A stretch of DNA of 64,000 nucleotides from an uncultured bacterium (GCA_964591275.1 CAZQAE010000023.1:6333-70332); one strand, 5' to 3'. Positions 4,151 to 61,929 are shown, numbered from the stretch's first letter. The notes: generated from the sequence alone by a model not told the origin. Numbers and translations are program-made.

Positions 4151-4614
4151 GTGGATGCCTTCTTCAGTTTAAATGATGATTTGGCACAAAGGAACTTCTC
4201 GCCTGGACCAGACAAGTAGAGAAAGCTCTGTGGTGGATGGAATCGACCCGCTTCGCTAAGCTTACGAAGCCCTTGAGGAGTGGAAGCATGTTCGTAGGCA
4301 CCCAAGACAAATACACCTAGTGTTTCACAGTTTGCACAATAGCTTTTGACTTCTTCTCTCGAAAGACAGAAGAGCTTATGTTGCTGCAGAGCCTCATCTC
4401 TCGTGATCGCACCAATCTTGATTATCGGTGCTCTTCCAACGATGGCTGAAACAGGTGCCTTCGCCCAAAGATATATCCAATCGGGCGTACCTGTGCGTGG
4501 ATATCGTTTCCTAATCACTCGTTTTAATGAACCGTTGCTGATCTTCTCCAGGTCGGTGGGAGAAAAGGAAACGACAACAGAACATAAACGCGATTCTGCT
4601 TTGAAAGTGATCAT
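4147..4614 (-). CDS. Small (155 aa) PUA-like/ASCH-like protein, occupying the slot usually taken by DUF3780 in DUF499/DUF1156 cassettes
   Basis: It overlaps the methylase start (4147-4150) and the helicase stop (4611-4614) by 4 nt each, so it is translationally coupled. The segment ISNGSLKRVIRKRYP...IVGRAPIIKIGAI resembles the ASCH beta-barrel N-terminus (IlsGkKtiEiRk). The family assignment is tentative. Confidence 0.45.
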   Translation of the reverse strand: MITFKAESRLCSVVVSFSPTDLEKISNGSLKRVIRKRYPRTGTPDWIYLWAKAPVSAIVGRAPIIKIGAITRDEALQQHKLFCLSREEVKSYCANCETLGVFVLGAYEHASTPQGLRKLSEAGRFHPPQSFLYLSGPGEKFLCAKSSFKLKKAST

Positions 4615-7600
4615 GCGGGTGTCGCTCCATGATTCAGTAGATCATCCAGCTTGTAGGCCGTTGCTACTTCGCCAAACCCGGGTTCTTTGAATGGGAAGGC
4701 GCGGATGTAGGTCAGCTCGGATACTGCATCCCCATAGATTATGGCTACTGCCAGAATGAACTGGTCGGGCGCGTTCACAGCACACCGTACTTCGTTAGTA
4801 GTCAGCGTGACCTTATCTGCACCCTTGGCTCTGCCCTTCACCTCAATGAAGCGAAGTGTGCCTTCGGCGTCCTGGGACTCAATGTCGTAGCCAATACCTT
4901 TTGTGGCGCTCACGTCTTTAGGAACGCAGTCCAGAGAGCGCTCAGCCTCCATAACCGCTGCCATCGCCAACGCCTCAACCCGCTTACGTGCCTCAGCATC
5001 TACTCCGTCATCAGGCGAAACCGGTGCATGGCCCTGGTGCTTCAGCAAGAGTCCCGCGGGGATAATGAGCGCGCCACCTTTGACCTGCGGTGGACCCGCC
5101 ATGATCTGCCTCTCCTTTTGCAGCTCATCCAGTCGTGACTGGAGCCGGTCAGCGAGCTTGTCGGCGCGTTCCTGCGCAACGTGGGCAGGTAGTCGAGTGT
5201 TCTTGCCGGCACGTTCCTTGTGTTTGAGCATCTGGGCGCGGTGATCCCAATGGTTGATCTCTTTTGTGAGCCGAGCCTTGACCTGCTGCTCCACGCGATC
5301 GGTCTGCTCCATACGCTGTGCTTTGATCTCATTTACATGCTCAGGGATCACATCGGTGATGGCGTATCCCATGACCTCGTTGTCCCAGTCTTGCCGCAGC
5401 CACTGCGCGTCCAACTCGGCTTCAATCAAGGAGTGTTCGTTTTCGGCCAAAGGACGGTAATCAAGATAGGGCGCTGCGCCTGCTGATCGGTAGTTGCCGT
5501 CGGGTCCAACCTCAACAAACTGAAGGCGCTTGGAGATGGTCAGGAAGTCCCCGTCTCGACCCCGACGACCATCATGGATTTCGTGCTCCAGGTAGAAGAG
5601 TATTCGTGGCGTCTCACTCGCGTCAGCTTCATCCACCAAGACAGCACCACGCTTCATCAGCTCGCCGTGCTTTTCTAGGACGAGGTCGATGGTGGCATCA
5701 AGAAGCGGGCTGCCAGGGCAGACCAGTTCGGCGCGAGGCTGCTGGTCAACCATGTCTTTCTCGAAACATATGCGCTCGTAACGTTCACCAAGCGGGGCGC
5801 CCATTCCTATCTGCCGATCCCGGCGACGCAGAGCTACAGGGACACGGGAGACCTCCCATCGGCCCGACTCACGGCGGTGGACCTTACCACCCAGGCGGGG
5901 GAAGGCATCGAGGAAGAAGGCTTGAATGAAGTGAGGCTGGAGTCTGCGGGCATGGGCGCGTTCCATCTCCTCTCGGATGCTCTGAATGTGCGTGGTGTCC
6001 ATCGAGTCGTTGACCAAAGCCCTTTCATCGAGAATCTCCAGGAGATGGTCATGGTTGATGACGCCGTCTACCGCTTCGTTGAGGCGTGCCTTGACCTCGG
6101 GGTCGTTGCCGTAGCAAATCGCATCCATGAGCATCTCACGAAGGGCTTTCTGATCGAAGAGCCTGCCGAGTACGTCGTAGACCTTGCCGCCGAGGGCTTC
6201 ACGCTCGGCTTCGAGCTTCTCCAGCAGGCGGACGTATACATCGCCCTCACGGGTATCTTTGGCGATCAAGTTCCACAAGTGACAGACCTCGGCCTGGCCG
6301 ATGCGGTGAATGCGACCGAAGCGCTGTTCCAGTCGGTTAGGATTCCAGGGCAAATCGTAGTTCACCATCAGGTGCGACCTCTGGAGGTTCACACCTTCGC
6401 CCGCGGCATCGTTGGCGACCAACACCAGGACTTCGGGGTCGTTCATGAACCCATTGACGATACTGCGTCGCTCTTCTCGGGTTACGGACCCGTGTATCTC
6501 TACGACGGCCTTGTCCCGCCCGAGCCGGTTTCGGATACGTCTGCCAAGATAAAAAAGGGTGTCCTTGAACTCACTGAAGATGACCAGCTTTCGACGGTTC
6601 CCGTCATCATCTGTCATCAATGGATCATCAAGGATTGTACTGAGTTGGTTCCACTTGGCATCTTGGCCTGAGCGCACCACCGTCCGGGCAAGCCCTTCCA
6701 GTCGTTTGAGTGTCTCGATCTCAATCTGAAGTTCTTCGATGGTCGCCGCTGCTGTAGCGTTGTCGATGAGTTGGGTCTCAAGATCCTCCCGCTCCTCCTG
6801 GGGAGCCTCATCGTAGGCATCATCAAAGTTGTCCTCAGTTATACCATCGAGCACAGAGTCAGAAAACTCCAGCTTAGCCTTCTCACCCTTGAGCAGGATG
6901 CGCGCCTCACGCAGGCGGCTCTCCAGCTTCTCGTGACGGCGCTTGAGTGATCTATAGATAGACTCAGGAGACGAAGCCAGACGACGTTGGAGGATCATCA
7001 AGGCAAAGCCCACGTTGACACGCCGTGTCCCTTCTCCTTCAGCGAATCGCTCGGCCCGGTTCATCTCCTCGCGAACGTAGTCCGTTACTTCTGTATACAG
7101 AGCCGCCTCGGGCGCCGACAGGTCATACTGAACAGTGTAGGAACGGCGCTCGGGGAAGAGAGGTTTGCCGTCGAACTTGTAGAGGTCCTCTTTGACCAAG
7201 CGGCGCATTAGATCTGAGGGGTCAGGCGTATGGACACCATCACGGAATTTGCCCTCGAAACGATCGCTATCCAACAGGGCGAGGAAAATCTGAAAGTCCT
7301 CGTTCTTCCCATTGTGCGGGGTTGCTGTCATCAGAAGAAAGTTCCGACAGTGTCTACCAACCAACTGGCCCAGCTTGTATCTCTTGGTGAGTTTGACCTC
7401 GTTGCCGAAGTAATGGCCGCTCATCCGATGGGCTTCATCAACGATGATGAGATCCCACTCGGTGGCGTGTATAAACTTTTCCTGCAGATCTTCGTTGCGG
7501 GAGAGTTGGTCCATCCGAGCGATGAGGTAGTTGTTGTGGTCGAAAGGGTTGGCCGTGCGTGAGCTTTGAATCATTTCTCGGTTAAGCAGATCGAAGTTCA

Positions 7601-8129
7601 GCCCAAACTTTTCATATAGCTCGTCTTGCCATTGATCCGTAAGGGACCCGGGAGAGATAATAAGGCATCGCTTGAGGTCACCCCGAACCATTAGCTCCTT
7701 GATGAGGAGTCCGGCCATGATGGTCTTACCGGCGCCAGGATCATCTGCGAGAAGAAAGCGCATCGGCTGACGAGGCAGCATCTCTTCATAGACTGCTGAT
7801 ATTTGATGCGGCAAGGGCATGATGATGCTGGTGGTGATCGCAACATATGGATCAAACAGCCAAGCAAGATTGATCCGATACGCTTCTGAGACAAGACGAA
7901 GGAGCGCACCGTCCCCATCAAAGGACCAGGGCTTACCGCCGGCGACAACCTCGATGCCCGGTTCATCGTCACGATAGATGAGGCGTTCTCCATACTGGCC
8001 AGAGGAGTCCTTGTAGACAAGCTTCATTGCCTGGTCTCCGATCCACTCTGCCGAGACGACGGTCGCAACACCAGTGGGCGAGATGCCGCTCATCCGCGCT
8101 CCAGCAGTCAATTCCTCTAGCTTCGCCAT
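4611..8129 (-). CDS. SNF2-family DNA helicase (1172 aa) with C-terminal DUF3883-like (NO VEIN-type) domain
   Basis: Helicase motifs present are I (LLADDPGAGKT), II (IIVDEAHRM), V (VANDAAGEGVNLQ) and VI (QRFGRIHRIGQ). The C-terminal approximately 120 aa (GYDIESQDAEGTLRFIEVKGRAKG...) is typical of DUF3883 appended to defence helicases. Confidence 0.85.
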   Translation of the reverse strand: MAKLEELTAGARMSGISPTGVATVVSAEWIGDQAMKLVYKDSSGQYGERLIYRDDEPGIEVVAGGKPWSFDGDGALLRLVSEAYRINLAWLFDPYVAITTSIIMPLPHQISAVYEEMLPRQPMRFLLADDPGAGKTIMAGLLIKELMVRGDLKRCLIISPGSLTDQWQDELYEKFGLNFDLLNREMIQSSRTANPFDHNNYLIARMDQLSRNEDLQEKFIHATEWDLIIVDEAHRMSGHYFGNEVKLTKRYKLGQLVGRHCRNFLLMTATPHNGKNEDFQIFLALLDSDRFEGKFRDGVHTPDPSDLMRRLVKEDLYKFDGKPLFPERRSYTVQYDLSAPEAALYTEVTDYVREEMNRAERFAEGEGTRRVNVGFALMILQRRLASSPESIYRSLKRRHEKLESRLREARILLKGEKAKLEFSDSVLDGITEDNFDDAYDEAPQEEREDLETQLIDNATAAATIEELQIEIETLKRLEGLARTVVRSGQDAKWNQLSTILDDPLMTDDDGNRRKLVIFSEFKDTLFYLGRRIRNRLGRDKAVVEIHGSVTREERRSIVNGFMNDPEVLVLVANDAAGEGVNLQRSHLMVNYDLPWNPNRLEQRFGRIHRIGQAEVCHLWNLIAKDTREGDVYVRLLEKLEAEREALGGKVYDVLGRLFDQKALREMLMDAICYGNDPEVKARLNEAVDGVINHDHLLEILDERALVNDSMDTTHIQSIREEMERAHARRLQPHFIQAFFLDAFPRLGGKVHRRESGRWEVSRVPVALRRRDRQIGMGAPLGERYERICFEKDMVDQQPRAELVCPGSPLLDATIDLVLEKHGELMKRGAVLVDEADASETPRILFYLEHEIHDGRRGRDGDFLTISKRLQFVEVGPDGNYRSAGAAPYLDYRPLAENEHSLIEAELDAQWLRQDWDNEVMGYAITDVIPEHVNEIKAQRMEQTDRVEQQVKARLTKEINHWDHRAQMLKHKERAGKNTRLPAHVAQERADKLADRLQSRLDELQKERQIMAGPPQVKGGALIIPAGLLLKHQGHAPVSPDDGVDAEARKRVEALAMAAVMEAERSLDCVPKDVSATKGIGYDIESQDAEGTLRFIEVKGRAKGADKVTLTTNEVRCAVNAPDQFILAVAIIYGDAVSELTYIRAFPFKEPGFGEVATAYKLDDLLNHGATPA

Positions 8130-8344
8130 TCGTAAAATTCCTTTCCCATCCCTGGGGCGGGAGAAAGTAAATAGTACACATCAACATGGTCTGGGTTCAG
8201 GGGGAATTCGCGAACCGCCACGCCTTTAGTGGTGTGAAGATTCATCACGTCACGATTCTGGACAATCCACCCTGTCATGCCGAGCATCCCATCAATGACA
8301 ATGCGGGCTTTCTCTTCCGGAGTTTTAGCGCCGGGAGCGTTCAT
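8117..8344 (-). CDS. 75-aa ORF resembling the N-terminus of an HsdR-type restriction subunit (HSDR_N motif); probably a gene remnant
   Basis: EEKARIVIDGMLGMTGWIV resembles the HSDR_N consensus (ea.tR..IDp.L...GW.v). It overlaps the helicase start by 13 nt in another frame. It is too short to be a functional nuclease domain. Confidence 0.25.
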   Translation of the reverse strand: MNAPGAKTPEEKARIVIDGMLGMTGWIVQNRDVMNLHTTKGVAVREFPLNPDHVDVYYLLSPAPGMGKEFYEWRS

Positions 8345-8900
8345 AAATTTCCCCGTCAGTTTCGCTCAATCTGATAACCCGGCCAATCGAAGGGATACAA
8401 TGAATCCAGATTTCACATAACCTTCAAACGCGCCTGACATTAAAGCGATTTCAGATCATAGGCCTCCGGCGATTCAACGTCAACGCGCAGCGCCGATACT
8501 CCGCACACAAAAATCCGTACGCACGGTCAATTTCCACACACCGGAAAAAATAATACACCGACCGGCATTTCACCGGCTGAGTGGGTCCCCTTTAAGGCGA
8601 GCCGAAGTCCCGGGGCCTTGCTTTGTCAGCCCAGAGGTTCAGACGGTAGGTCGGAAGTATGCGGGCGGTTTCTCATCCCGCGACCCAACAGGGAGCTGGT
8701 CGAGCACGACGAGGAGGAGGCCGAGAGCGAAGACACCTTGAAGTGGACTGTGCCTATAACCGTGCCCAGAATAATGGCCCATAACGGGAACTAACCGGAA
8801 GTATCCGGAAGTAACGAGAGGTGCGTGGAATGCATAAAAGCGAGATAATGCAAGGGAAGCGCCGTAATCTCGCATAGTTAGATGTTTCCGTTCGTTAGGG

Positions 8901-8923
8901 TTCGAACCCCGTCGCCCGCTAAA
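8901..8923 (+). repeat. Copy 1 of a perfect 23-bp direct repeat TTCGAACCCCGTCGCCCGCTAAA (tRNA T-loop-like GGTTCGAACCCC)
   Basis: There is an exact match to 12763-12785. An imperfect TTTTCTCATTT(T) motif also occurs in both regions: at 8968-8979 (about 45 nt downstream of copy 1) and at 12741-12750 (about 12 nt upstream of copy 2). Confidence 0.8.
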
Positions 8924-8964
8924 TGAAAGATGGTCCATAAGGCATTGTTTTTGCGGGCCTTTTC

Positions 8965-9339
8965 TCATTTTACAAGCCTCAAATGACTGGATCTTTCAGG
9001 CCGTTGACAGATTTCTTGACAACTTTCTTGCTTTTCAAGCCCAGGGAGCAGGCGATCTACGGCGTCTTTCGCTGCCTGACCAGGGCTGTGCGTGTACCTC
9101 ATCGTGACACGAATATCGGAATGGCCAAGGATTTTTTGTACGACTTCAAACGAAGTCCCATTCAGAACGAGCAGCGAAGCGAAGGAATGCCGAATGTCGT
9201 GAAAGCGAATGCGCTTCAATCCCGCCTTCACGCAAACTCGATGAAAGGGTTTACGAAATGAATATGCCGTCACTTGGTGCCCCTCTGGACTCACAATTGG
9301 TGCTAAACGCCTATCAGCATCAGAGGATGATTCTCCCAA
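8965..9339 (-). pseudogene. Tyrosine recombinase (phage integrase family) C-terminal catalytic fragment, 124 codons; 5' part of gene missing
   Basis: It contains the HxxR box (HDIRHSFAS) and the catalytic Tyr region (VTMRYTHS). There is no N-terminal core-binding or arm-binding domain. The upstream DNA is occupied by the start of the 9404 gene. Confidence 0.7.
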
Positions 9340-9403
9340 TTTGCTATTTCATGTTTTTAAGTTCACCATTCGTTGAGAATTTTCAAATTGACGGGGATAA
9401 TAA

Positions 9404-12400
9404 ATGCGAACGCCGGTAATTTTTTGGACTTTGCTTTTGGCTTGCCTGCTTTCTTTTTCTATTTCGTGCGGCGGAGGCGGAGACGACGATGATTCCGATG
9501 ATGACGATGCTGGGGAAAGCGAATACGGGGCCTGCTGCGTCGATGGCGCCTGCTCAGTGACAACATACGCTGATTGTTCCGGTTCCTGGCAGGGACCGGG
9601 CACGAATTGCGATCCTAATCCGTGCGTTGACGACGACGTGGATGATGACGTTGACGACGATGTTGATGACGACGCGGATGATGACGTTGACGACGATGTT
9701 GATGACGACGCGGATGATGATACGGACGACGACACAGACGATGATGCGGACGATGACGTAGATGATGATGACACAACGGAGCCGACAACAACGACGACTG
9801 TCGAACCAACGACCACAACGACGCAGGAGCCGACCACGACGACCACGGTTGCACCGACGACAACAACGACGCAGGAGCCAACCACGACGACCACGGTTGC
9901 GCCAACAACCACAACGACGCAGGAGCCGACCACGACGACCACGGTTGAGCCAACAACCACAACAACCACGCAGGAACCGACCACAACGACAATTGTCACA
10001 ACAACTTCGACAACAACCACGACAGGGAATCCCGACGCCGAGGAAGTTATCGTGCCTGCAGGTACTTTTTGGATGGGTTGCGAACCGGACGACTCTGAAT
10101 GTGAATTAAATCCGAACGAACATCCTCGACACGAAGTAGAAATGTCGGAATACTACATTGACGTGTTTGAAGTAACCAATGAGAAATACGCCCAATACAT
10201 GAACCTGCATAATCCTTTGAATGATTGCTATGACTACACATGTGTGGAATCGTCTCATAAGGCCAGTAGCAAAGGGATATATGAGGAAAGCGGAGTCTGG
10301 ATGGTTGACGAAAGATATGAGTCTCGTCCTGTAGTTGGCGTAACATGGTATGGTGCGTTAGCGTATTGCGAAGCACAGGATAAGTCTTTGCCGACAGAAG
10401 CGCAATGGGAAAAAGCGGCAAAAGGTGGAGATGAGCATTACATCTATCCCTGGGGTAATACATGGAACTATTATTCGACTAACTGGGCCAATCAGATGGA
10501 CGAATATGAAAGAATTTCAGAGTTGCCGAAGACAACTCCAGTGGGTTATTTTAATGGCGACATTTATGATGAAGGTACTATGTGGGAATACCAAACCATG
10601 GATGGACGCAGTCCTTACGGAGCACATGACATGCTCGGCAATGTTGACGAATGGGTCTATGATAGCTATCAAGCTGATTACTATTCTCAAACGCCCGCTG
10701 GAGGTTGGGTAGATCCTGTTGGCCCGGATGAAGTCAACCGCAAGGTATTTAAGGGAGGTAACTGGAATAATTCAAATCCAAGCTGGGAACAGAGAAACAG
10801 CCTTAGAGAAAATGAGCTTTCTTTTGATTCCAATGGTAGAATCGGTTTTCGATGTGCATTTGCCTCACCAACGACTACTTCCACAACAACGACTACGATT
10901 GCACCAACAACGACAACCACGGTTGCACCGACGACCACAACCACGCAGGAACCGACCACGACAACCACGGTTGCGCCAACAACCACAACGACGCAGGATC
11001 CAACCACGACGACCACGGTTGCGCCAACAACCACAACGACGCAGAATCCGACCACAACAACTATCGAGACTACAACGACGACGGTTGCGCCGACCACGAC
11101 CACGACGACCACGTCCACAACGACAACAACGGCGTGTCCGGGATGTTACATTGGAGAGACTTGTTTGGCGGAAGATGAGGTTAATCCCGACAATATCTGC
11201 GAAATATGCAAACCCGATCAGGATCGCTTCGACTGGTCCTCAAACGACGGCGAATTGTGTGACGATGAAGAATTCTGCAACGGAACGGATGCCTGCCTGG
11301 AGCGCACTTGTTCCGATCATTCAGGCGACCCCTGCCCGGATGATGGCTTATGGTGCACCGGTGTGGAAGGCTGCAACGACATTCTTGAAGAATGTGAGCA
11401 GCTCAACATCCCGGAATGTCCTGATGACAACCTGTTCTGTACCGGAAATGAATTCTGCGACGAGGTAAATGATCTGTGCGACAGCGAAGGCGATCCATGC
11501 GAAGATGGAACGATTTGCGATGAAGAGAACAATGTTTGCGTGACGACAACGACGACGACAAGCACATCCACTTCGACAACGACAACCGTTGAAACTACAA
11601 CAACCACGACCCAGGAACCAACCACGACGACTACAGTAGAACCGACCACAACAACCACGACAGGGAATCCCGACGACGAGGAGGTTTCCGTGCCCGAGGG
11701 CGCATTCCAGATGGGTTGCGAGCCGGAGGATGAAAATTGCTCAAATAATGAATCGCCCCGCCACGAGGTCTGGTTGTCCGCGTATTCCATCGATACATAC
11801 GAAGTGACCAACGAAAGTTACGCGGAGTTTCTGACTTGGCACGGCAACGTCTGCGAGGGGTACGGGTGCGTGGGTGCGGATTCTTCTTCTCTGCGCCTCA
11901 GCGAATCCGACGGCGTCTGGTCAGTCGATTCCGGTTATGAAGATCATCCTCTGGTAGAAGTGACTTGGTACGGCGCAAGGGCTTATTGCGAGTCGCAAGG
12001 CAAGCGTTTGCCGACGGAAGCCGAGTGGGAAAAGGCCGCCAAGGGCGCTGCGGAACACTACATCTACCCTTGGGGCGACACGATGATCACCAATGCCGCA
12101 AATTACAGGGACTCCGGCGACCCCTACGATAATGATACGACGCCGGTTGGATACTTCGACGGCAGCGACCACGGCGGCGCGTATCAGACAACTGATGGAC
12201 GCAGTCCTTATGGCGCGCACGATATGGCTGGCAATGTGTGGGAATGGGTGAACGACTGGTACTCGTCAACCTACTATTCCACCAGCCCATCAACCGATCC
12301 TCCGGGACCGGTTTCCGGTGGGTACCGTGTTTTGCGCGGCGGTTGCCGGGGCTATGGTTTCATGTACCTGCGTGCGTCGGACCGGGCCTCGGGCGTCCCT

Positions 12401-12445
12401 CGCAACACGTACGGCTACTACGGGTTCCGTTGTTCCCGGGACTGA
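9404..12445 (+). CDS. 1013-aa secreted lipoprotein with a polyAsp linker, three Thr/Pro mucin-like repeat blocks, a Cys-rich module and two SUMF1/FGE-sulfatase-fold domains
   Basis: Signal/lipobox is LLSFSISC followed by GGGGDDDDSDDDD. Repeats are (EPTTTTTV/APTTTTTQ)n. FGE-fold motifs occur twice: PAGTFWMGCEP...RHEV...VTWYGALAYCEAQDKSLPTEAQWEKAAKG...YPWGN...GAHDMLGNVDEWV...FRC, and again around 11690-12440. Confidence 0.75.
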   Translation: MRTPVIFWTLLLACLLSFSISCGGGGDDDDSDDDDAGESEYGACCVDGACSVTTYADCSGSWQGPGTNCDPNPCVDDDVDDDVDDDVDDDADDDVDDDVDDDADDDTDDDTDDDADDDVDDDDTTEPTTTTTVEPTTTTTQEPTTTTTVAPTTTTTQEPTTTTTVAPTTTTTQEPTTTTTVEPTTTTTTQEPTTTTIVTTTSTTTTTGNPDAEEVIVPAGTFWMGCEPDDSECELNPNEHPRHEVEMSEYYIDVFEVTNEKYAQYMNLHNPLNDCYDYTCVESSHKASSKGIYEESGVWMVDERYESRPVVGVTWYGALAYCEAQDKSLPTEAQWEKAAKGGDEHYIYPWGNTWNYYSTNWANQMDEYERISELPKTTPVGYFNGDIYDEGTMWEYQTMDGRSPYGAHDMLGNVDEWVYDSYQADYYSQTPAGGWVDPVGPDEVNRKVFKGGNWNNSNPSWEQRNSLRENELSFDSNGRIGFRCAFASPTTTSTTTTTIAPTTTTTVAPTTTTTQEPTTTTTVAPTTTTTQDPTTTTTVAPTTTTTQNPTTTTIETTTTTVAPTTTTTTTSTTTTTACPGCYIGETCLAEDEVNPDNICEICKPDQDRFDWSSNDGELCDDEEFCNGTDACLERTCSDHSGDPCPDDGLWCTGVEGCNDILEECEQLNIPECPDDNLFCTGNEFCDEVNDLCDSEGDPCEDGTICDEENNVCVTTTTTTSTSTSTTTTVETTTTTTQEPTTTTTVEPTTTTTTGNPDDEEVSVPEGAFQMGCEPEDENCSNNESPRHEVWLSAYSIDTYEVTNESYAEFLTWHGNVCEGYGCVGADSSSLRLSESDGVWSVDSGYEDHPLVEVTWYGARAYCESQGKRLPTEAEWEKAAKGAAEHYIYPWGDTMITNAANYRDSGDPYDNDTTPVGYFDGSDHGGAYQTTDGRSPYGAHDMAGNVWEWVNDWYSSTYYSTSPSTDPPGPVSGGYRVLRGGCRGYGFMYLRASDRASGVPRNTYGYYGFRCSRD
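9771..10025 (+). repeat. Tandem 48-bp coding repeats (Thr/Pro-rich linker block 1)
   Basis: Reiterated ccgaccacgacgaccacggttgcgccaacaaccacaacgacgcaggag units. Block 2 lies at about 10863-11135 and block 3 at about 11540-11665. Confidence 0.8.
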
Positions 12446-12482
12446 TTTACCCTTGAGCTCTTTTACCCTTTGAAAGGGGTTT

Positions 12483-12503
12483 CCAAAGGGGTATCCCCTT
12501 TGG
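12483..12503 (+). other. Perfect 9-bp-stem hairpin CCAAAGGGG-TAT-CCCCTTTGG, 38 nt after the stop of the 9404 gene; no U-tract follows
   Basis: Read directly from the sequence. A second near-palindrome, CCCTTTGAAAGGGG, lies at 12466-12479. Confidence 0.6.
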
Positions 12504-12619
12504 TGGGACTTGGGGCGAAGATGAGAATCTTCATTTCAAGGGCGATGCCCGCCCCTACGGCGCAGCCTGGGACATTGGCGCTGATGAATGGACGCCGTGA
12601 TGGGTTTCTTTTTGCAGTT

Positions 12620-12631
12620 TGTCAATTGACA
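12620..12631 (+). promoter_or_regulatory. Perfect 12-bp palindrome TGTCAATTGACA (candidate dimeric protein-binding site)
   Basis: It is self-complementary and located in the non-coding stretch between the hairpins and repeat copy 2. Confidence 0.3.
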
Positions 12632-12762
12632 GATTTTCGGCGAATTTTCGTGCATTGAAACAAATTTTCCGGCACTGAAAACAACTTTGAAAGCGCCGTA
12701 AGTGATTGAAATAGTGGCAATGTGGCGTAATACCAGAGTTTTTCTCATTTCATCGATTCGCT

Positions 12763-12785
12763 TTCGAACCCCGTCGCCCGCTAAA
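12763..12785 (+). repeat. Copy 2 of the 23-bp direct repeat TTCGAACCCCGTCGCCCGCTAAA
   Basis: There is an exact match to 8901-8923. It is flanked by TTTTTCTCATTT (12740-12751) and TTTTTCTTATTTT (12826-12838). Confidence 0.8.
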
Positions 12786-12913
12786 GCGAAAAGGCCGGTA
12801 ACTACTGAAAGTTGCTGGCTTTTTCTTATTTTGCCCTTCGGAAACCTGTTGGTTTGCAACGAGTTTTCTACTAAAGTCGGCGATACTGACTCGCCGCCGC
12901 GATCACCGTCGAG

Positions 12914-13396
12914 TTGCGGCATTATATTCCGCAGGTCCGTCGCGTCATCGATCAGGCCGAACGCCGCGTACTCAAGGGTGAGACCCTCCCGCCCGCGGAG
13001 AAGCTCGTCTCCATCTTCGAGCCGCATACCGACATTATCGTCAAGGATCGGCGGGATACATACTTCGAACACAAGGTCGTGCTCACCGGCGGCGCTTCGG
13101 ATCTGCTCACCGATCTCGTTGTCGAAAAAGGCAATCCGGCGGACTCAAGTCTGGCCGAAAAGATGATCGTTCGGCAAAAAGAGATTTACGGACGTGCGCC
13201 GCGTCAGGCCGCCTTCGACGGCGGCTTTGCCTCCAAGGACAACCTGAAGGACATCAAGGCGCTCGACGTCAAAGACGTCGCCTTCCACAAGAAACGGGGA
13301 CTGAAGATCGACGACATGGCGAAGAGCGCCTGAGTCTATAAGCGCCTGCACAATTTCCGCACCGGAATCGAGGGCAAAGCTGCACGCAAAGCATGA
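12914..13396 (+). pseudogene. IS4/IS5-superfamily DDE transposase fragment, with no N-terminal third and an in-frame TGA at 13331
   Basis: The DxG(F/Y) box is AAFDGGFASKDNLKDI. After the internal stop the same frame continues as VYKRLHNFRTGIEGK, resembling the C-terminal YK..R..IE signature. Confidence 0.6.
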
Positions 13397-13622
13397 ATCC
13401 AATAGGGAGATGGCGCACCGGCAAGGCTCAATCAACGATTATTGCGCCTCATGCGACAACCGCATCAGCCAATCGGACTGCCCGGTCGCTCGAAAACCCC
13501 CATTACGGGACAGGAACTTATTAATTTTTTCTTTTCACAATTCTTTTGCTTTCGGGTATAATTTCGATGGCTCACGGTGAAAATTGTCTGTTGTGAATAT
13601 TTCACTCGGAGGTGATTGCGTT

Positions 13623-14522
13623 ATGAGTCCAAACCCTGCTCAGTTCCTTAACCTGGAACCTGAATTCACCAATCCAAAATTGGCCCAAACGGTTATTCTG
13701 CCCGTTCCTTACGAGGGAGGCGCCTCGCATGGAAAGGGCGCAGCGAACGGTCCGAGGGCCATTATCGAGGTTTCACGCAATATTGAACTCTACGATGAAG
13801 TCTACGGAAAAGAGATTCACACTGGCGGTATCGCAACATTAGCGCCTGTCGATACATCAGGAGATCCCCGGACAGTTATGGAAAATATCCGGGCGGAGGC
13901 GGCGAAGTGGATGAAAAACGGTAAATTCCTTATCGGTATCGGCGGAGATCATTCTGTCACCTTCGGCCTGTTTGGCGGCGTTCAAGAAGCGCATCCTGAC
14001 ATAGCGTGCATCCAGATCGATGCCCGCCCGGATTTGCGTAATATCTATGCGAATGATCCGCTCAGCCATGTCTGCGTGATGTCGCGGATTCGCGAACTTA
14101 AGGCCCAGACTCTTCACCTCGGCATTCGAAGCATGAACGCCGCTGAAGCGCAGCGTATTAAAAACGAGAAAATCGAAACCGTACGAATGCAGGAGTTCTA
14201 TCAGAAAAAAGTGGATATCGGAAGAATCCTGGCCACGATCGGCGAGCGGGTTTATCTCACTATTGACTTGGGTTGCCTGGATTGGTCGGTTATCCGCTCA
14301 ACCGGCACGCTGGAGCCGGGAGGCTTCACCTGGCGTGAAATGCTTGAGCTTCTCGATATGATTTTCAAAGACAAGAATGTTGTGGCCTGCGACGTGATGG
14401 AACTGGCTCCAAAAGAAAACGACGTCAACTCGGCCTTCGCCGCTGCCCGGCTCGTTTTCAAGCTCATCGCCATGAAGCACAGTATCGAGCACATTGTCCG
14501 CATGGATGGCCTGGTCATTTAA
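13623..14522 (+). CDS. Arginase/agmatinase-family ureohydrolase
   Basis: The manganese-ligand motifs GGDHSVT and DARPD are present, with an RBS GGAGGTGA 11 nt upstream of ATG 13623. The track ORF starts at 13584. Confidence 0.8.
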   Translation: MSPNPAQFLNLEPEFTNPKLAQTVILPVPYEGGASHGKGAANGPRAIIEVSRNIELYDEVYGKEIHTGGIATLAPVDTSGDPRTVMENIRAEAAKWMKNGKFLIGIGGDHSVTFGLFGGVQEAHPDIACIQIDARPDLRNIYANDPLSHVCVMSRIRELKAQTLHLGIRSMNAAEAQRIKNEKIETVRMQEFYQKKVDIGRILATIGERVYLTIDLGCLDWSVIRSTGTLEPGGFTWREMLELLDMIFKDKNVVACDVMELAPKENDVNSAFAAARLVFKLIAMKHSIEHIVRMDGLVI

Positions 14523-16048: not shown

Positions 16049-17095
16049 ATGGCTGAGAAGATCAAACTTGGCGGGATTCTTTTAGACGCCGGCATCATTC
16101 AAGAAGATCATATCGAGAAAGCATTGGCGAAGCAGAAAGAGTTGGGCCTCCGTTTCGGCGAAGCCCTTCTGAAGCTCGGCGCCATTAAAGCCGAAGACAT
16201 TGCCTGGGCTTTGTCGCAGCAACTCGATATTCCACTGATTCACGTGAGCGCCTCATCAGTTGATATCAATGCCGTTGCCCTGGTTCCGATTGAAATCGCC
16301 AAAAAGCATACACTCGTTCCCTACCTGTTGATGGAAGACGAACTGACCATCATCATAGACGATCCTTTCAAGGAAGATGCCGTAAAGGATGTTCAAGCTG
16401 TCAGCCGTCGCAAGGTGAATCTGGCCGTTGGCATGGCCGACGAAATTCTGGCGATCCTTGATGAAGTCTATGAAATGGCTTCATCTCATTTTGCCGATTC
16501 GGCTGCGCCCGGGCAGGCTGCCAAGCCGCGGATCAACATCGACAAGATCGTCAACGAAATCATCGAAAAGCCCGTATCCATGATCGATCTCGACCAGGAA
16601 GGCATGAGCGAGGCCATCGGCGAATTGGGTCAACGCAAACCTGAAGGAATATCCACCAAGCTTTCGGAAATATTTTTTGCCGAACCCAAACTCAGGATCG
16701 CCGTTGTGAAATCTCTGGCGCGAATAGGCGACAAAGTATCCGAAAAAATCCTCATCCCCGCCGCTAAATTCCAGGAAAACTTTACTTCCATGGGTCACAT
16801 CGTCAGCGCCTACAACAGGGATTACGAACTGCGCGACGCGGCATTGAAGGGCCTTGGGAATTTGGGGACAAAAAACGCCCGCTCAACCTTAAAATTAATG
16901 ATCCGCTGCTGGGCTTTCCCCTTATTCAGAATCTTCATGTTCCCGATTTTCAAATTGGGCAAAGTCCGTCCCATGATCGATACCGCGCGCAACTCATTGG
17001 TGCGCGTTGAAATGCGCTTGAATGAAGCCAAAGTGGCAAAAGACGAAGAGACGACTGACCCGAGAATGGGCGACGACAATTCTTCCAAGGAGTGA
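16049..17095 (+). CDS. MshEN (T2SSE_N)-domain protein with C-terminal HEAT-like repeats; a putative c-di-GMP receptor
   Basis: Two consecutive 24-residue MshEN-type motifs are present: KLGGILLDAGIIQEDHIEKALAKQ and RFGEALLKLGAIKAEDIAWALSQQ. HEAT-like repeats include AVVKSLARIGDKVSEKILIPAAK. The stop lies 4 nt before the pilT start. Confidence 0.7.
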   Translation: MAEKIKLGGILLDAGIIQEDHIEKALAKQKELGLRFGEALLKLGAIKAEDIAWALSQQLDIPLIHVSASSVDINAVALVPIEIAKKHTLVPYLLMEDELTIIIDDPFKEDAVKDVQAVSRRKVNLAVGMADEILAILDEVYEMASSHFADSAAPGQAAKPRINIDKIVNEIIEKPVSMIDLDQEGMSEAIGELGQRKPEGISTKLSEIFFAEPKLRIAVVKSLARIGDKVSEKILIPAAKFQENFTSMGHIVSAYNRDYELRDAALKGLGNLGTKNARSTLKLMIRCWAFPLFRIFMFPIFKLGKVRPMIDTARNSLVRVEMRLNEAKVAKDEETTDPRMGDDNSSKE

Positions 17096-17098
17096 TTA

Positions 17099-18195
17099 AT
17101 GCCTGTTATTGACCGATATTTTAAATTCGTCACCGAAAGCAATGCGAGCGATTTGCACCTCACAACGGGTTCTCCGCCCATGGTGCGTGTTCATGGCGAG
17201 TTGAAAAGCATCAACCACCCGCCTTTCAAAAACGAAGATCTGTATAAAATCATTACAGAGATAATGAATGATCGCGTGAGAAAGGAATTTGAGGAAAAAA
17301 ACAGGCCGACTTCATATATGTCCTTGGAGACGCGGGCCGATTTCGCTGCAACGCTTTCACGCAACGCGTTGGCGTCGGGTTTGTCTCACGACTGATTCCG
17401 AGCAAGGTTCTGAGCATGACGGACCTGAATATGCCCAAGGCCCTTTACGGATTCACCAAACTCACCAAAGGGCTCGTGGTCGTGACGGGACCCACGGGGT
17501 CGGGGAAATCGACGACCCTCGCCGCCATCATCAACGAAATCAACGAAAACCGGTGCGATCACATTCTTACTGTCGAGGATCCGATAGAATTCGTTCACAA
17601 GAACAAAAAGGCTTTGGTGAACCAGCGGCAAATCGGCGAAAATGTCGACTCGTTCAGCGACGCGCTCCGGGCCGCCTTGCGCGAAGACCCCGACATAATC
17701 CTCGTCGGCGAGATGCGTGATCTGGAAACAATTTCCCTGGCCATCTCCGCCGCGGAAACGGGCCATCTGGTTTTCGGAACCCTGCACACCAGCAGCGCCG
17801 TGAAAACCGTGGACCGCATCATCGATGCTTTTCCCGCAGACATGCAAGAGCAGATTCGGGTGATGCTTTCTGAGTCGCTCAAAGGCGTTGTGGCGCAGGT
17901 CCTTCTTCCAACGGCGGACGGCAAAGGGCGCATAGCCGCCCTGGAAATTCTCATGTCCACCCCGGCGCTGGCGAACATCATACGCGATAAAAAGTCTTTC
18001 CAGATTCCTTCGCTGATTCAGACCAGCAAGAGTATCGGCATGCAGCTCATGGACCAGGCGCTGACGGATCTGCTCGAAAGAAAGAAGATCCATGGCCTCG
18101 ACGCCTACATGGCCGCCGTGGACAAAAAGTCTTTCGTCCGCTTCCTGACTCCACAGGAAAAAGATCAAATCGGATTGAAGCCGGAGTTGAGCTAG
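17099..18195 (+). CDS. pilT: Twitching-motility ATPase PilT, interrupted by a single-base frameshift in an A7 run (17294-17300) and therefore split into two track ORFs
   Basis: The N-terminal ORF (SDLHLTTGSPPMVRVHGEL...IMNDRVRKEFEE) and the C-terminal ORF (VVVTGPTGSGKSTT...LVGEMRDLETI...GHLVFGTLHT) together cover full-length PilT. In frame 1 upstream of 17416 the reading is GKKQADFIYVLGDAGRFRCNAF...LIPSKVL, which is continuous with PilT. Confidence 0.85.
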
Positions 18196-27032: not shown

Positions 27033-27360
27033 ATTGTAAATTTGACTCCCTTGGCTATCTTTTTTAGGAAAAAGGGCAAAGCCCGTCCAGGCGGATTGCA
27101 AAAAAACTCTTCGGGAAGCTTTTTAAACTTTGAAAAGCATAAAGTAAAAAACAGTGGAATGCCATACGGTACGATTTCTCTAAAAAATGCGAATCGAAAA
27201 AGATCGCCTGCGATAATTCGAACAACCACTTGAGCCTCGCCCTTTTATAAAAAAACTTCGCGCCGGTTCAGATGACATGAGTCGCGGCTCAGAACCACGT
27301 GGGCTTGCTTTATGGTGATGACCAAATCATCATGCAATCTGAAAAACTCGGAGGCCAACA

Positions 27361-30149: not shown

Positions 30150-32126
30150 CTATTGCAGATAGCCTAATGAACGCAGCCTATTAATCGTTTCATCGTCCAA
30201 TCTTAGCGTCGTGCCTTCTTCGATACGCGAAGCGAATTTTTCATTTTCCTCGGCGATGACTTTATCCAGGGCGGCGGCGGCTTCCGGAGTATGGATGTTG
30301 CTCTTTTCCCCCGGATCATTGGCCAGGTCGAAAAGAAGCCAATCGTGTCCGAATTTCTCCATCGCATTTTCATTGGGATGATATGGCTCAAGCAGTTTAT
30401 GCGTGGTCGTTCTGGCGCTGAAACGATGCGCTCCCTGATGTTCGCTGATCCATGAAAACTGGGTTTCTGAAAAGACAGGCCCCGTCGCGGCAAGCTTTTC
30501 CAAAAGTTCCGGCACTCCTCGCTCCCCGCATGACAGGCGCAGGTTCATCTCCGGCGTCTGCCCAGCCACCGACATTATCAGGTCCGCAATCGCTTTGGAT
30601 GGAATCGAACGGTCCGAGAGCCTTGCGCCCGCGCACGCGCCACGAGGAAATTTGACGATAAGGGGAACACGGATGCTTTCGTCGAAAAGATGTTGGGAAT
30701 GACCCCACGCGCCGTGTTCGTAGAATTCCTCACCGTGGTCGGATACGACAACGATCATGGCGTTGTCGTATCGCCCCGCTCTTCTTAACATCTCAAAAAA
30801 CCGCCCCAGAACAAAATCCACGGAAAGTATCAGTTCATCGTAACGATCAATGGAAGAGCGTGCGGCGTGTTCGGGCGCGCCATTCGCCCACCGGAGGAAA
30901 TCCCCGAAATCGCTGCCAATCTCGGCATTGAGAAAAGGCGTCGGCGGTCCGAAATGCGTGTAAAGCTCCGGCGGTGGTTTGTAGGGATAGTGGAGATCGA
31001 AGAGATGAAGAAAAAGAAAGCTCGGTGCGTTTTCCGCGAGAAACCAGCCGGCGGCTTCCCGTGTTGTCGTTGCGGCGTCTTGAGAATCCTTAAAGGAAAA
31101 AACATCGAAACCGCTGTCGAAACCGAATTTCTGGGACACAAGGATTCCCGTCACGTAAGCGGCGGTTCGATACCCCTTTTGCTTAAGCAGTTCCGGGAAA
31201 ACGGTCATTTTCGGATCTATCGACGAAAGCGGCTCCACGGCGCCGTGTTCATAGGGCAAAAGACCCGTGAACATGGAGGCGTGGCTCGGCAAGGTCCACG
31301 GCGCATGCGCGATGAAGTGCTCCGCAAGAACACCCTCTTTGGCCAGTAGATCAAGATTCGGCGAGGTGTTTCTCTCATATCCATAGCTGGATAAATGATC
31401 GGCCCGCAAGGTATCGATGCTGATAAAGATGATCTCGGGCGAATCATATGGGAGCATTTCCGTGGCGCTGCGGCCCAGCGTCGTCATGAAGATCAATATC
31501 AGAACAAGAGAAACGGGAACGGCAATTCGCGAAGGTTTTCCGCTTTGCCAAGCTGCGGATTTTCCGCCAGGGAAGAGCTTCGCGACAAGATGGAGAATCA
31601 CCAGAAGGATTAAGCTGACAATTCCGAAGAAGGTTATTGCCGTGGCGCGAAAACGAAGAGGCTCTTGTTCCAGGCCAAAGGAGATGATCGACTTTAACAA
31701 CTGCCCGGCACCGGCCCACCTGACGATAATCCGGGCGCCGAACAAGGCTCCATTCGTTTCAAAAAACATCAGCGCCAGATGCAACAGAGGCGTCGCAATA
31801 ATCCATATGGCGGCTAAAATCCCCAGTTTCAGCCGATGCCTTCCTCCCAGGACCCGCGCGATTGTGGCTATGATCGCCAGCCACAGACCGAAGATCAAGC
31901 CGTTTGCGAGCACCGGACCAAGCTGCGCCTGCACCATCGCCAATAGAACGCCGGGGAGGTCTCGCTCCATATACTGATGCGGCCCGGCCTTCCCTAAACC
32001 GACAACAACTCCGCCAATGCCGAATAGAGCCGCGACGACAAGCCAGACATTGAGAAAGCGCAGCACTGAATCAAGGCTTAATCCCCTGCCTGATTCGGCT
32101 TGATTTTTCTGGTCTTGCTTTGGCAT
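30150..32126 (-). CDS. Membrane-anchored sulfatase-like (alkaline-phosphatase superfamily) phosphotransferase of the LtaS/MdoB/EptA type, not a formylglycine sulfatase
   Basis: An N-terminal block of multiple TM helices is followed by metal-site motif IIFISIDTLRADHL. The nucleophile region APWTLPSHASMFTG has Thr and His where true sulfatases have C-x-P-x-R. Confidence 0.7.
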   Translation of the reverse strand: MPKQDQKNQAESGRGLSLDSVLRFLNVWLVVAALFGIGGVVVGLGKAGPHQYMERDLPGVLLAMVQAQLGPVLANGLIFGLWLAIIATIARVLGGRHRLKLGILAAIWIIATPLLHLALMFFETNGALFGARIIVRWAGAGQLLKSIISFGLEQEPLRFRATAITFFGIVSLILLVILHLVAKLFPGGKSAAWQSGKPSRIAVPVSLVLILIFMTTLGRSATEMLPYDSPEIIFISIDTLRADHLSSYGYERNTSPNLDLLAKEGVLAEHFIAHAPWTLPSHASMFTGLLPYEHGAVEPLSSIDPKMTVFPELLKQKGYRTAAYVTGILVSQKFGFDSGFDVFSFKDSQDAATTTREAAGWFLAENAPSFLFLHLFDLHYPYKPPPELYTHFGPPTPFLNAEIGSDFGDFLRWANGAPEHAARSSIDRYDELILSVDFVLGRFFEMLRRAGRYDNAMIVVVSDHGEEFYEHGAWGHSQHLFDESIRVPLIVKFPRGACAGARLSDRSIPSKAIADLIMSVAGQTPEMNLRLSCGERGVPELLEKLAATGPVFSETQFSWISEHQGAHRFSARTTTHKLLEPYHPNENAMEKFGHDWLLFDLANDPGEKSNIHTPEAAAALDKVIAEENEKFASRIEEGTTLRLDDETINRLRSLGYLQ

Positions 32127-42863: not shown

Positions 42864-43169
42864 GCTCATCTCTCTTTCCTAAAATGACACCAAGAGCTTC
42901 TTGCCAAACACGGCAAGAGGCTCTTTGTCTGAAAGGGTAAAGAAAGAAGGCGGAAAGAGGTTCTCTTTCGTTTCAGAAAGAAAATTATTTCTCCCAATTA
43001 CCGCATTTTCGTTGACTACAGAGACATTGGAGAATTTCTCAACTTTTCCTTTTATCTTGACTTTCCAGAAGCAATTGACTATGGACGGAGGTCGCGAACC
43101 GTAAGTGTTCGCAGCTTTATTTTGCGCACTGCGCAGGGAAATATTCGGGGCTTGGTCTTTGAATCGGTA

Positions 43170-59849: not shown

Positions 59850-60084
59850 TTTTCTTTCCTCATCGCCTAGGCTTTGCGCGACAATCGGCAAAAGCACGCC
59901 AACAGTCAAGACTTTTGGCGCATCGGTGAGCAGTTTGGACAAGGCCAAAACCGCGAAAAGGCGGAAAAGGCATAACTTTCCTGGTCAGGAAGCACCGAAA
60001 TTCGGGTCTAAAATACTTGGATTTTTTGTCTTGACCAATGGTCATTCCGCGTCCACCCTACGCACCGGTTTGGAAAGGACAACC

Positions 60085-61929
60085 ATGACAGACAATCAAC
60101 AAGTACGAATGCCAGAGAAAATCCGCAACATCGCCATCATCGCCCATGTCGATCATGGGAAAACGACGCTGGTCGATAAAATGCTCGCGCAATCCGGCAG
60201 CTTCCGGCGCGGCGAAAGCGACATCGAACAAGCTATGGATTCCGGCGAACTGGAGCGCGAGCGCGGCATCACTATTCTCGCCAAGTTCACCTCGCTGGAT
60301 TATGAGGACTTGCACATCAACGTGGTGGACACGCCGGGCCATGCCGATTTCGGCGGCGAAGTCGAGCGCGTGATGCGCATGGTCGACTCTGTGCTGCTGC
60401 TGGTCGACGCCTTCGAAGGAGCGATGCCGCAAACGCGATTCGTCACCAAAAAAGCCCTCGCGTGCGGCCTGCGCCCGATTGTTGTGATCAATAAAATTGA
60501 TCGCCCCGGCTGCGACCCCATCGCCGCCGCCGACTCGGTGCTAGACCTGTTCATTTCGCTGGACGCCACCGATGAGCAGTGCGATTTTCCCCTCATCTAC
60601 GCATCGGCTAAGCACGGTTACGCCGTGAACAACCTGGACGACGAGCGGGCTGACCTGATGCCCCTGTTTCGCCTGATCGGCGAGTACGCGCCGCCGCCCG
60701 TGGTGGACCTAAACGATGTCCCGGCCTTGCAGGTCATTACTTTCAACCACGACGAATACCTGGGATCCATGGCCATCGGTCGTATGGAATCAGGCACTTT
60801 CCATACCGGCGACCGCGCCCTGCTGGTGCATCGCGATGGCAGCCGCGACGAGTTTCGCATCAACACCATTCTCGGCTTTCGCGGTCTTCACCGCTTCGAA
60901 ATGGAACAGGCCATGGCCGGCGACATCATCGCCCTGACCGGCATGGAGGAATTGGACGTCGGCGAAACAATCACTTCGGTGGAAAACCCCAAGGTGTTGC
61001 CGCTGCTCGAGGTTGATGCGCCCACGGTCAGCATGACCTTTATGATCAACACCTCGCCCACCGTAGGTCGCGAGGGCAAGTACATCACCAGCGCCAAGCT
61101 CAGCGAACGCCTGACTCGCGAGAAGAAATCCAACGTCTCACTGCGCGTTGAGCATACCGCCTCGACCGATTCATTCATTGTCAGTGGACGCGGCGAATTG
61201 CACCTTTCGGTGCTGATCGAAACCATGCGGCGCGAGGGCTATGAGTTCATGGTCTCGCGCCCCAAGGTCGTTTTGCGCAAAAACGACAACGGCGCCACAC
61301 TCGAGCCTTACGAAATCGTCATCGTCGATGTCGAGTCCATACACGCCGGCACGGTCATTGAGTCGTTGAACCAACGCTTCGGTCGCATCACCAATTTGCG
61401 CGAAGTGGGCATGGGGCGCTCCCGTGTCGAATTCGTCATCCCCACGCGCGGCCTTATCGGCTATCGCCCAAGATTCATGACCCAAACGCACGGAACCGGC
61501 GTCATCAACGCAGTCTTTCACGAGTACGGCCCCTGGGCCGGCGACATCAAAGACCGACCGGTCGGAGCGCTGGTCGTGCTGGACCCGTGCACTTCCGTGA
61601 TCTATGCGCTGTGGAAACTGGAAGACCGCGGCATATTTTTTATTGGACCGGGTGAAAAAGTTTATGCGGGGCAGGTCATCGGCGCGCACACACGCAATAG
61701 AGACCTGGTCGTCAATCCCGGCAAAACCAAAAAGCTGACCAACGTCCGCGCGGCGGCCACCGACGAAAAGAATGTATTCAAGCCGCATAAGGTGTTGACG
61801 ATTGAAGAAGCCCTCGATTTCATCAACGACGATGAGTTGGTCGAATTTACGCCGCAATCCATTCGCCTACGCAAACGGATTCTGGATCACAACGACCGCA
61901 AGAAAGCCGAGTCGGTCGTCAATGCCTAA
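60085..61929 (+). CDS. typA: Translational GTPase TypA/BipA
   Basis: The GTPase motifs are [29 protein letters not shown] and NKIDR. The length of 614 aa and the C-terminal domain are typical of BipA. Confidence 0.85.

Follow-up and report, generated by a model that had tools for sequence, protein, structure and literature searches.

The intact open reading frame (ORF) at 9404..12445 (+) in a 64-kb stretch of DNA from an uncultured bacterium (GCA_964591275.1 CAZQAE010000023.1:6333-70332, here called the window; all coordinates are window positions unless a locus is named) starts with ATG and encodes 1013 residues. Its product is probably a non-catalytic, lipid-anchored envelope protein that presents two variable ligand-binding heads on long flexible spacers. 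The heads are domains of the formylglycine-generating enzyme (FGE) fold from which the catalytic cysteine pair is missing, and the segment that holds the active site in FGE is hypervariable across the protein family. Because this segment also coincides with the variable region of TvpA (Treponema denticola variable protein 1), a protein diversified by a diversity-generating retroelement (DGR), a non-catalytic binding role is the most likely one. The gene is a further instance of a kind already known, the non-catalytic FGE-fold envelope lipoprotein, and belongs to a lineage-specific family publicly labelled as FGE.

The architecture given in an initial annotation made from the sequence (lipobox, polyAsp, three Thr-rich blocks, a Cys-rich module and two FGE-fold domains) was confirmed, together with the ORF itself, by sequence inspection, Pfam and Tandem Repeats Finder (TRF). 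Thr accounts for 18% and Asp for 11% of the 1013 residues, and the gene is laid out as follows.

9393..9397 (+), Shine-Dalgarno-like GGGGA that precedes the ATG by 6 nt, seen by inspection of the sequence
9404..9469 (+), aa 1-22, signal peptide with lipobox, pattern FSIS-C with predicted lipidation at Cys22 (codon 9467-9469)
9470..9508 (+), first acidic tract, GGGGDDDDSDDDD, immediately after the lipobox Cys
9509..9625 (+), small six-Cys motif, aa 36-74 (YGACCVDGAC...C...C...C), between two acidic tracts; no Pfam match
9626..9772 (+), polyAsp spacer (xDDD)n, aa 75-123, an imperfect 12/36-bp repeat
9773..10024 (+), Thr-rich spacer 1, aa 124-207, EPTTTTTV/APTTTTTQ units, an imperfect 48-bp repeat (TRF: 4.4 copies, 87% matches)
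10025..10867 (+), FGE-fold domain 1, aa 208-488 (PF03781; aligned to 6s07/2aft), without catalytic Cys
10751..10843 (+), variable-loop region of domain 1 (KGGNW...GRI), mapping to family-hypervariable columns
10868..11131 (+), Thr-rich spacer 2, aa 489-576, beginning 4 residues past the GFRC of domain 1 (TRF: 3.3 copies, 88%)
11132..11539 (+), Cys-rich module, aa 577-712 (136 aa), with a head CxGCxIxxxC...NPxNxCExC...W..ND followed by DDGxFCNGxExC...GDPC-type repeats
11540..11662 (+), Thr-rich spacer 3, aa 713-753
11663..12445 (+), FGE-fold domain 2, aa 754-1013 and the stop codon; best Pfam stretch 758-1010
12299..12421 (+), variable-loop region of domain 2, in which 11 codons differ from the nearest allele, P0001

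PF03781 (FGE-sulfatase) matches the protein in two stretches (Pfam, E=2e-92), and the two domains are 50% identical to each other. Modelled with AlphaFold2 from the family alignment, domain 2 reached a mean predicted local distance difference test score (pLDDT) of 85.9 and a predicted template-modelling score of 0.88. The model's top Foldseek matches in the PDB were bacterial FGE (2q17/6muj; E=1.6e-23, 32-33% identity, template-modelling score 0.77), followed by human FGE, pFGE, CalU17, PvdO, ToxD, EgtB, OvsA and PorK. Like bacterial FGE (2Q17/6MUJ; 6S07), the domains keep the GNVWEW and RLPTEAEWE motifs and the AYC...GFRC cysteines; unlike it, the window protein has no Cu(I)-ligating cysteines, is predicted to be exported and lipid-anchored on spacers, and has no sulfatase substrate nearby.

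True FGE ligates Cu(I) through both catalytic cysteines, C272/C277 in the Streptomyces coelicolor enzyme and C336/C341 in the human one. The catalytic positions of both domains were judged by alignment to solved FGEs from T. curvata (6S07), S. coelicolor (2Q17/6MUJ) and human (1Y1E/2AFT). Where FGE has GGSxxCHxSYC, domain 1 reads KGGNWNNSNPSW, with Asn and Trp at the two catalytic Cys sites. Domain 2 reads RGGCRGYGFMY; its lone Cys can be fitted to the first catalytic Cys only through a 3-residue gap, and the second site is Phe. Across the 45-sequence family alignment the column of this lone Cys holds S, G, C, N or A and is not conserved. The alignment bears out the earlier statement that paired catalytic cysteines are missing from both domains, and because the Cu(I)-binding pair is absent from each, neither can work as an FGE.

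No enzyme partner for such an activity lies nearby. The only PF00884 (sulfatase-family) ORF of the window, at 30150..32126 (-), has W-T-L-P-S-H in place of C/S-x-P-x-R, in agreement with the initial annotation, which had given it Thr rather than Cys or formylglycine, and no sulfatase gene was seen in eight related loci. Several membrane helices are predicted at the N-terminus of its product, which is weakly similar to phosphoethanolamine transferases; given this and the TLPSH motif, the protein probably acts as a transferase or hydrolase through a Thr nucleophile and not as a sulfatase.

The chance that one or both domains are nonetheless active, either as a sulfatase-maturing FGE or as an oxidase like EgtB, OvoA, SenA or PvdO, we consider close to nil. 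True FGEs are the top sequence and fold matches, and the NCBIfam matches to SenA, EgtB and PvdO are statistically significant, but the equivalog scores lie 2.3- to 8-fold under their cut-offs (GldK, TIGR03525, 149.3 against 350; SenA, 143.6 against 420; EgtB, 141.6 against 360; PvdO, NF051459, 66.2 against 500), with OvoA at 16.3 against 400. Scores so far under the cut-off reflect the common fold only. Catalysis by EgtB, OvoA and SenA requires an N-terminal DinB-type iron domain; no DinB domain was matched by Pfam in the 1013-residue protein, and only low-complexity spacers precede each FGE-fold domain. The initial annotation had offered substrate-binding modules on a long stalk or EgtB/DUF323-like oxidases. 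Its view that the domains are not functional FGEs and serve as binding modules on long spacers is the best reading, while the oxidase half fails for want of a DinB domain and of scores anywhere near cut-off. A PvdO assignment was likewise rejected on its score, and the window holds no pyoverdine genes. A structural part in gliding or secretion machinery, such as the FGE-fold lipoproteins PorK, GldK and GldJ play in the type IX secretion system (T9SS), is highly improbable. The window protein shares with PorK and GldK a lipoprotein N-terminus and a non-catalytic FGE fold, GldK is its top NCBIfam match, and PorK structures match the model. It differs from them in scoring well under the GldK cut-off and in lacking any T9SS context, no porL/M/N-like genes having been found in the window or related loci, and its family, multi-copy, hypervariable and made by shuffling, does not behave as a conserved piece of machinery would.

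The initial annotation had not remarked on the C-terminal loops of the domains or on their resemblance to DGR variable regions. In the 45-sequence alignment about 25 positions between RGGxW and GFRC have entropies of 3.3-3.8 bits, against 0-1.5 bits for core columns, and they are framed by the invariant residues R237, R241, P246, G254, R256 and C257. This segment is where the active site lies in FGE. Known DGR variable regions, those of TvpA, Mtd and TaqVP, occupy 40-45 residues at the very C-terminus with an invariant tail (PMC6328139). TvpA has the FGE fold without FGE activity and is thought to bind ligands (PMC5758913, PMC6328139). Among DGR targets, no class is larger than that of the FGE-sulfatase proteins (19%), and one known target carries three FGE domains in tandem (PMC5758913).

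By sequence, the window protein resembles TvpA (PDB 2Y3C) in being a lipoprotein or envelope-associated protein with an FGE-sulfatase fold and no FGE activity, and in carrying a variable surface of about 40-45 residues at the extreme C-terminus followed by an invariant tail. The two match in sequence, and the domain 2 model matches 2Y3C (E=1e-13, Foldseek rank 49). They differ in that identity is 25%, that the window protein has two domains, long polyAsp and polyThr spacers and a Cys-rich module, and that no template repeat, reverse transcriptase (RT) or Avd was found in the 64 kb, related loci or public scans. LdtA, a DGR-diversified surface lipoprotein of Legionella pneumophila, differs by belonging to the DUF1566/Lcl_C-type class rather than to FGE-sulfatase, and by having its own DGR adjacent, inside an integrative element. 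The protein pFGE/SUMF2 (PDB 1Y4J), matched by both sequence and Foldseek, is likewise a paralogue with the FGE fold that lacks the catalytic cysteines and FGE activity; it differs in being eukaryotic, resident in the endoplasmic reticulum, single-domain and not a lipoprotein.

The N-terminus is that of a bacterial lipoprotein. The signal peptide ends in a lipobox, MRTPVIFWTLLLACLLSFSIS directly before the Cys, and an alignment of homologues shows that both this Cys and the acidic residues after it are conserved; the homologues P0003 and P0004 have nearly the same N-terminus and signal peptide as the window protein. A lipobox Cys followed directly by polyAsp/Glu occurs in at least seven window ORFs (9404, 41038, 46532, 47203 and 47871 on the plus strand; 27032 and 24147 on the minus strand), and the polyAsp-tethered products include an S15 peptidase (24501-27101) and three Lcl_C proteins. 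The combination of lipobox and polyAsp is a lineage-wide tether or sorting signal. The polyAsp-coding repeats cross-hybridise among many window genes. The six-Cys motif behind the first acidic tract (aa 36-74) is an additional feature that the initial annotation did not contain.

Taken as a lipoprotein, the product would be processed by signal peptidase II and then tethered by Cys22. The acidic and Thr-rich low-complexity spacers would hold the two domains, which belong to the FGE subtype within the C-type-lectin fold, plus the disulfide-rich module, off the membrane. Each FGE-fold domain would bind its ligand through the last ~40 residues between RGGxW and GFRC, a putative binding surface that corresponds to the Cu/Cys active site in true FGE and to the variable region in TvpA, and that is the fastest-evolving part of the family.

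Some observations weigh against a surface-exposed binding protein. By sequence and fold, true bacterial FGE is a nearer match for the domains (32-33% identity, Foldseek rank 1) than TvpA is (25%, rank 49), and other residues of the FGE-fold domains may support an unrecognised catalysis. The acidic tether says nothing specific about function, because it is also present on enzymes such as the S15 peptidase. In E. coli, Asp near position +2 retains lipoproteins at the inner membrane, and if that rule applied here a periplasmic location would be possible. In Bacteroidota, acidic residues following the lipobox Cys are a surface-export signal (PMC5080379), and surface exposure of the 1013-residue lipoprotein is suggested only by analogy with it.

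We compared domain 2 codon by codon with the gene for P0001 (locus L007), numbering the 260 codons within the domain. The differences in codons 0-128 are of both kinds, 21 of them synonymous and 22 nonsynonymous, and of the 59 nucleotides changed there 29 stand at third positions; codons 129-211 are identical. Codons 212-252 then differ at 11 codons, all nonsynonymously and none synonymously; all 15 nucleotide changes fall at codon positions 1 or 2, and four loop codons carry a change at each of the two. Identity returns in the final 8 codons and continues for ~27 nt past the stop. The probability of finding no third-position change among 15 is 3.9e-5, and that of no synonymous change in 132 codons at the rate of the 5′ part is 4.7e-10. 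The 3′ half was thus shared recently with P0001, which points to recombination, and was afterwards changed only at loop codons.

Several features of this loop recall a DGR variable region. Relative to the nearest allele, only codon positions 1 and 2 are substituted, as in DGR variable proteins. Adenine-templated mutagenesis would turn AAY into NNY, and 15 of 15 changes lie at the corresponding positions, in a single sequence pair. C is the last base in most variable codons, which fits a derivation from AAC, and 9 of the 11 lie on family-hypervariable columns. The placement, codons 212-252 of 260 with the last 8 invariant, is that of the TvpA-like class. Two control pairs, the window Lcl_C genes and L015:7689-9569 against domain 1 of P0227, show ordinary divergence with many third-position changes; the first two Lcl_C genes are 80% identical in DNA and differ by ordinary synonymous divergence. 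Adenine makes up 11.5% of the domain 2 loop, a low value that is common across the family and is therefore a weak DGR signal. The domain 1 loop is 37.6% A, and 7 of its 31 residues are Asn, compared with 5.8% in the domain core (p=0.005). The domain 2 pattern resembles a DGR footprint, behind which might lie a remote DGR beyond the 64 kb, an event in the past or unusually strong selection.

No template repeat was found in the window or in 8 related loci, either by blastn (word size 7) or by an adenine-wildcard scan, in which the best non-self candidates had at least 40 non-adenine mismatches. Pfam matched no RT among ~40 large window ORFs, and none was seen beside 8 family genes in seven loci. 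A probe of two adenine-free loop stretches, which would necessarily be identical in any template (CGTGTTTTGCGCGGCGGT-N24-CTGCGTGCGTCGG), retrieved only the P0121 gene itself from JGI metagenome contigs and nothing from viral contigs. Cluster members were also checked for ongoing variation, and loops proved identical between samples (P0001=P0121; P0004=P0122=P0123). Two specific templates were tried and rejected. A common template for paralogues from one sample (P0002, P0003, P0022, both P0227 domains and the L015 genes) fails on the synonymous and third-position differences among their loops, and derivation of the domain 2 loop from that of domain 1 fails on mismatches at non-adenine positions.

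These data bear on two accounts of how the loop came to differ. That the domain 2 loop, and perhaps the domain 1 loop, is or was rewritten in trans by a DGR outside the window, making this a two-headed variable protein, is a genuine possibility that falls somewhat short of probable. It would account for the confinement of change to positions 1 and 2, for the C-ending variable codons and for the invariant last 8 codons, which would act like an initiation-of-mutagenic-homing element, as well as for a ~41-residue C-terminal placement that matches TvpA, Mtd and TaqVP. The ordinary divergence of the Lcl_C and L015 pairs sets the loop apart, the Asn- and AAY-rich domain 1 loop looks template-like, and targets lying more than 100 kb away from their RT are on record (PMC5758913). 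On the other hand, neither template nor RT was found by the searches above, the loops do not vary between samples within clusters, one inferred template codon would be TAG, the low adenine content is family-wide, and the case comes from one sequence pair.

The same binding lipoprotein could instead owe its loop differences to ordinary point mutations, favoured by strong diversifying selection, and to recombination among paralogues, with no retroelement involved, and we find this credible too without calling it probable. Mosaicism is evident: the 5′ half is ~15% diverged from P0001, while the 3′ 400 bp are shared outside the loop codons (P=4.7e-10), and P0123 and P0004 have identical C-termini with different N-terminal halves. 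The loop in L015 diverges more quickly than the core (33 against 19-23 mismatches per 150 nt), with third positions changing in the ordinary way, and the failure to find a template or RT in the window, related loci or public scans fits an origin of this kind. Yet selection would need 15 substitutions in 123 bp, with 4 codons hit twice, none synonymous and none in the flanking 273 bp, which is very hard to achieve stepwise. A more specific proposal, which we put forward tentatively and with more doubt than either account, is that the gene is a remote target of a DGR elsewhere in its host genome, encoding a lipoprotein with two independently diversifiable lectin heads on mucin-like stalks. A stranger variant is that a change pattern confined to positions 1 and 2 arises from targeted mutagenesis without a recognisable nearby template.

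The exact 1013-residue protein has no record elsewhere, and GTDB representative genomes hold no close relative (best 24-31% identity). Domain 2 has thousands of homologues, the best being P0001 (407 aa, 87% identity) and the others at most 73% identical; domain 1 is a more divergent paralogue whose best homologues reach at most 50%. The close homologues are small lipoproteins with a lipobox and polyAsp, then a Thr-rich spacer or the same Cys-rich module, and then one FGE-like domain, and family members carry the label 'formylglycine-generating enzyme required for sulfatase activity' in their sources. An exhaustive search of representatives returned 134,805 relatives, many with multiple FGE-like stretches. 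No conserved gene neighbourhood was found across L007, L008, L009, L011, L013, L014 and L015.

Two relatives resemble the window protein in having a lipobox, polyAsp, Cys-rich repeats and two FGE-like domains, and differ from it in the order and number of modules. P0227 (1177 aa; 62% identity over matched stretches) has long Cys-rich repeats and also a polyThr inter-domain linker: one domain ends in GFRCSRDY and is followed by the linker and a second FGE-like domain, where the window protein has GFRCAFAS and then polyThr. The adjoining gene L015:7689-9569 (626 aa) encodes two FGE-like domains joined without a linker. Elsewhere L009 holds two single-domain genes in tandem, and in P0256 an Lcl_C domain is joined to an FGE-like domain via polyAsp. 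As read from these sequences, the family is a large set of polyAsp-tethered lipoproteins apparently built by shuffling FGE-like, Lcl_C and Cys-rich modules. The 1013-residue gene is an ordinary member of this lineage-specific set, and it most likely arose by fusion of two neighbouring single-domain paralogues.

An assembly chimera across the shared Thr-rich repeats would also yield a two-domain ORF. Exact 33-45-bp repeats are common to the spacers, the exact protein has not been recorded elsewhere and mobile-element fragments lie on both flanks, but the junction falls at the natural end of domain 1 (GFRC plus 4 aa) and not within a repeat. The same domain-polyThr-domain layout recurs in P0227, beside which stands the linker-less two-domain gene, and multi-FGE proteins are many; given these two-domain relatives, we judge a chimera very unlikely.

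At L015 the two-domain lipoprotein genes 7689-9569 and 9699-13232 (+), encoding 626 and 1177 aa, lie next to each other and share the same signal peptide. The product of the former has no Pfam match on record, yet PF03781 matches it with E=8.6e-99. The locus also holds a third FGE-like gene (568 aa) and IS630 fragments.

The initial annotation had described the stalk as perfect 48-bp tandem repeats. They are imperfect: the 4.4 and 3.3 copies scored by TRF match at 87-88%, and exact repetition in spacer DNA extends over 33-45 bp at the longest, including a 45-bp exact match of spacer 2 to spacer 1. The linker/domain junction is present twice as a 28-bp exact repeat, at 10010 and 11648, and the number of Thr-rich units varies among homologues, a possible hint of the slippage that the initial annotation had proposed. 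In L008 a PMT_2 gene (GT-C, protein-mannosyltransferase-like; 12217-13959, minus strand) lies 3 kb downstream of the gene for the Thr-rich homologue P0003, with two radical S-adenosylmethionine/SPASM genes just upstream; the PMT_2 gene is a possible lead towards O-glycosylation of the Thr-rich spacers. The Cys-rich module (aa 577-712) has no Pfam match and shows 25 invariant columns in an alignment of 7 homologues (A2). Its first ~40 residues are confidently modelled, with 12 positions invariant in the seven homologues, and the remainder consists of DDGxFCNGxExC...GDPC repeats in variable number. The AlphaFold2 model of the whole module is unreliable (pLDDT 53).

TypA, encoded at 59926..61929, is 100% identical over the aligned 95% to a TypA from a JGI sample (P0370). 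It shares 77% identity with its counterpart in Candidatus (Ca.) Lernaella stagnicola and 73% with the one in Ca. Alcyoniella australis, both of the phylum Ca. Lernaellota, formerly FEN-1099; on this sequence evidence the window comes from a Ca. Lernaellota bacterium. The phylum is represented by metagenome-assembled genomes only, and an anaerobic life degrading proteins and polysaccharides has been deduced for it (PMC9324843). Thousands of proteins of the kind described here are auto-annotated 'formylglycine-generating enzyme required for sulfatase activity', a label that is wrong for the whole lineage-specific family: its members are without the active site and have the look of envelope receptors or adhesins that are modular and evolve fast. 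For Ca. Lernaellota cells the family is a candidate means of recognising particles, prey, partners or phages. Should the DGR-like footprint be true, it would give the first indication that DGR-type targeted hypermutation occurs in this uncultivated phylum, here on a single member of a large shuffled paralogue family, and the protein would be a natural two-headed variable scaffold; if not, it would be a routine paralogue.

Three further features lie close to the gene.

8965..9339 (-), tyrosine recombinase, C-terminal fragment (PF00589; covers only profile positions 97-168 of 172)
12483..12503 (+), hairpin (stem 9 bp, loop 3 nt), 38 nt past the stop (DNA fold of 12415-12535, z=-3.3)
12914..13333 (+), fragment of an ISNCY-family transposase (NF033593, positions 249-389 of 444, 157.5 bits against a cut-off of 325)

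The hairpin has no T-run after it and is missing from the otherwise homologous 3′ flank of P0001 in the alignment. A weak 71-nt direct repeat (72%) flanks the gene at 8901-8971 and 12763-12832 and, with the truncated recombinase and transposase, suggests a past rearrangement. The surroundings are a rearranged, island-like region. Defence-island content at 1301-8129 (-) and 18243-21563 (-) includes DISARM-like genes that adjoin the lipoprotein gene: an ORF of 949 aa resembling DUF1156 methyltransferases, one of 155 aa, and an SNF2 helicase that bears a NOV_C domain, which are similar to DISARM DrmD (369.7 bits, under the cut-off of 610). A type ISP restriction-modification enzyme is encoded ~6 kb downstream of the lipoprotein gene. 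Between these stretches, a MshEN/HEAT protein gene (16049-17095, plus strand) is followed by an ORF (17416-18195, plus strand) that covers positions 138-286 of 370 in the profile of the type II secretion/type IV pilus ATPase (T2SSE) and may be a split or degraded secretion ATPase gene.

The three Lcl_C proteins (PF07603, formerly DUF1566) are tandem polyAsp lipoproteins encoded at 46532-47173, 47203-47841 and 47871-49049 (+), the third probably starting at ATG 47871 and not at the listed GTG 47625. Lcl_C is another C-type-lectin-like class known among DGR targets. A papain-family (C1) protease gene (43122-44534, plus strand) carries a polyAsp-coding repeat at its 3′ end. Together with a DUF6345 protein (39204-40067, plus strand), the S15 peptidase and a C45-family hydrolase (35573-36991), this protease fits the proteolytic lifestyle proposed for Lernaellota.

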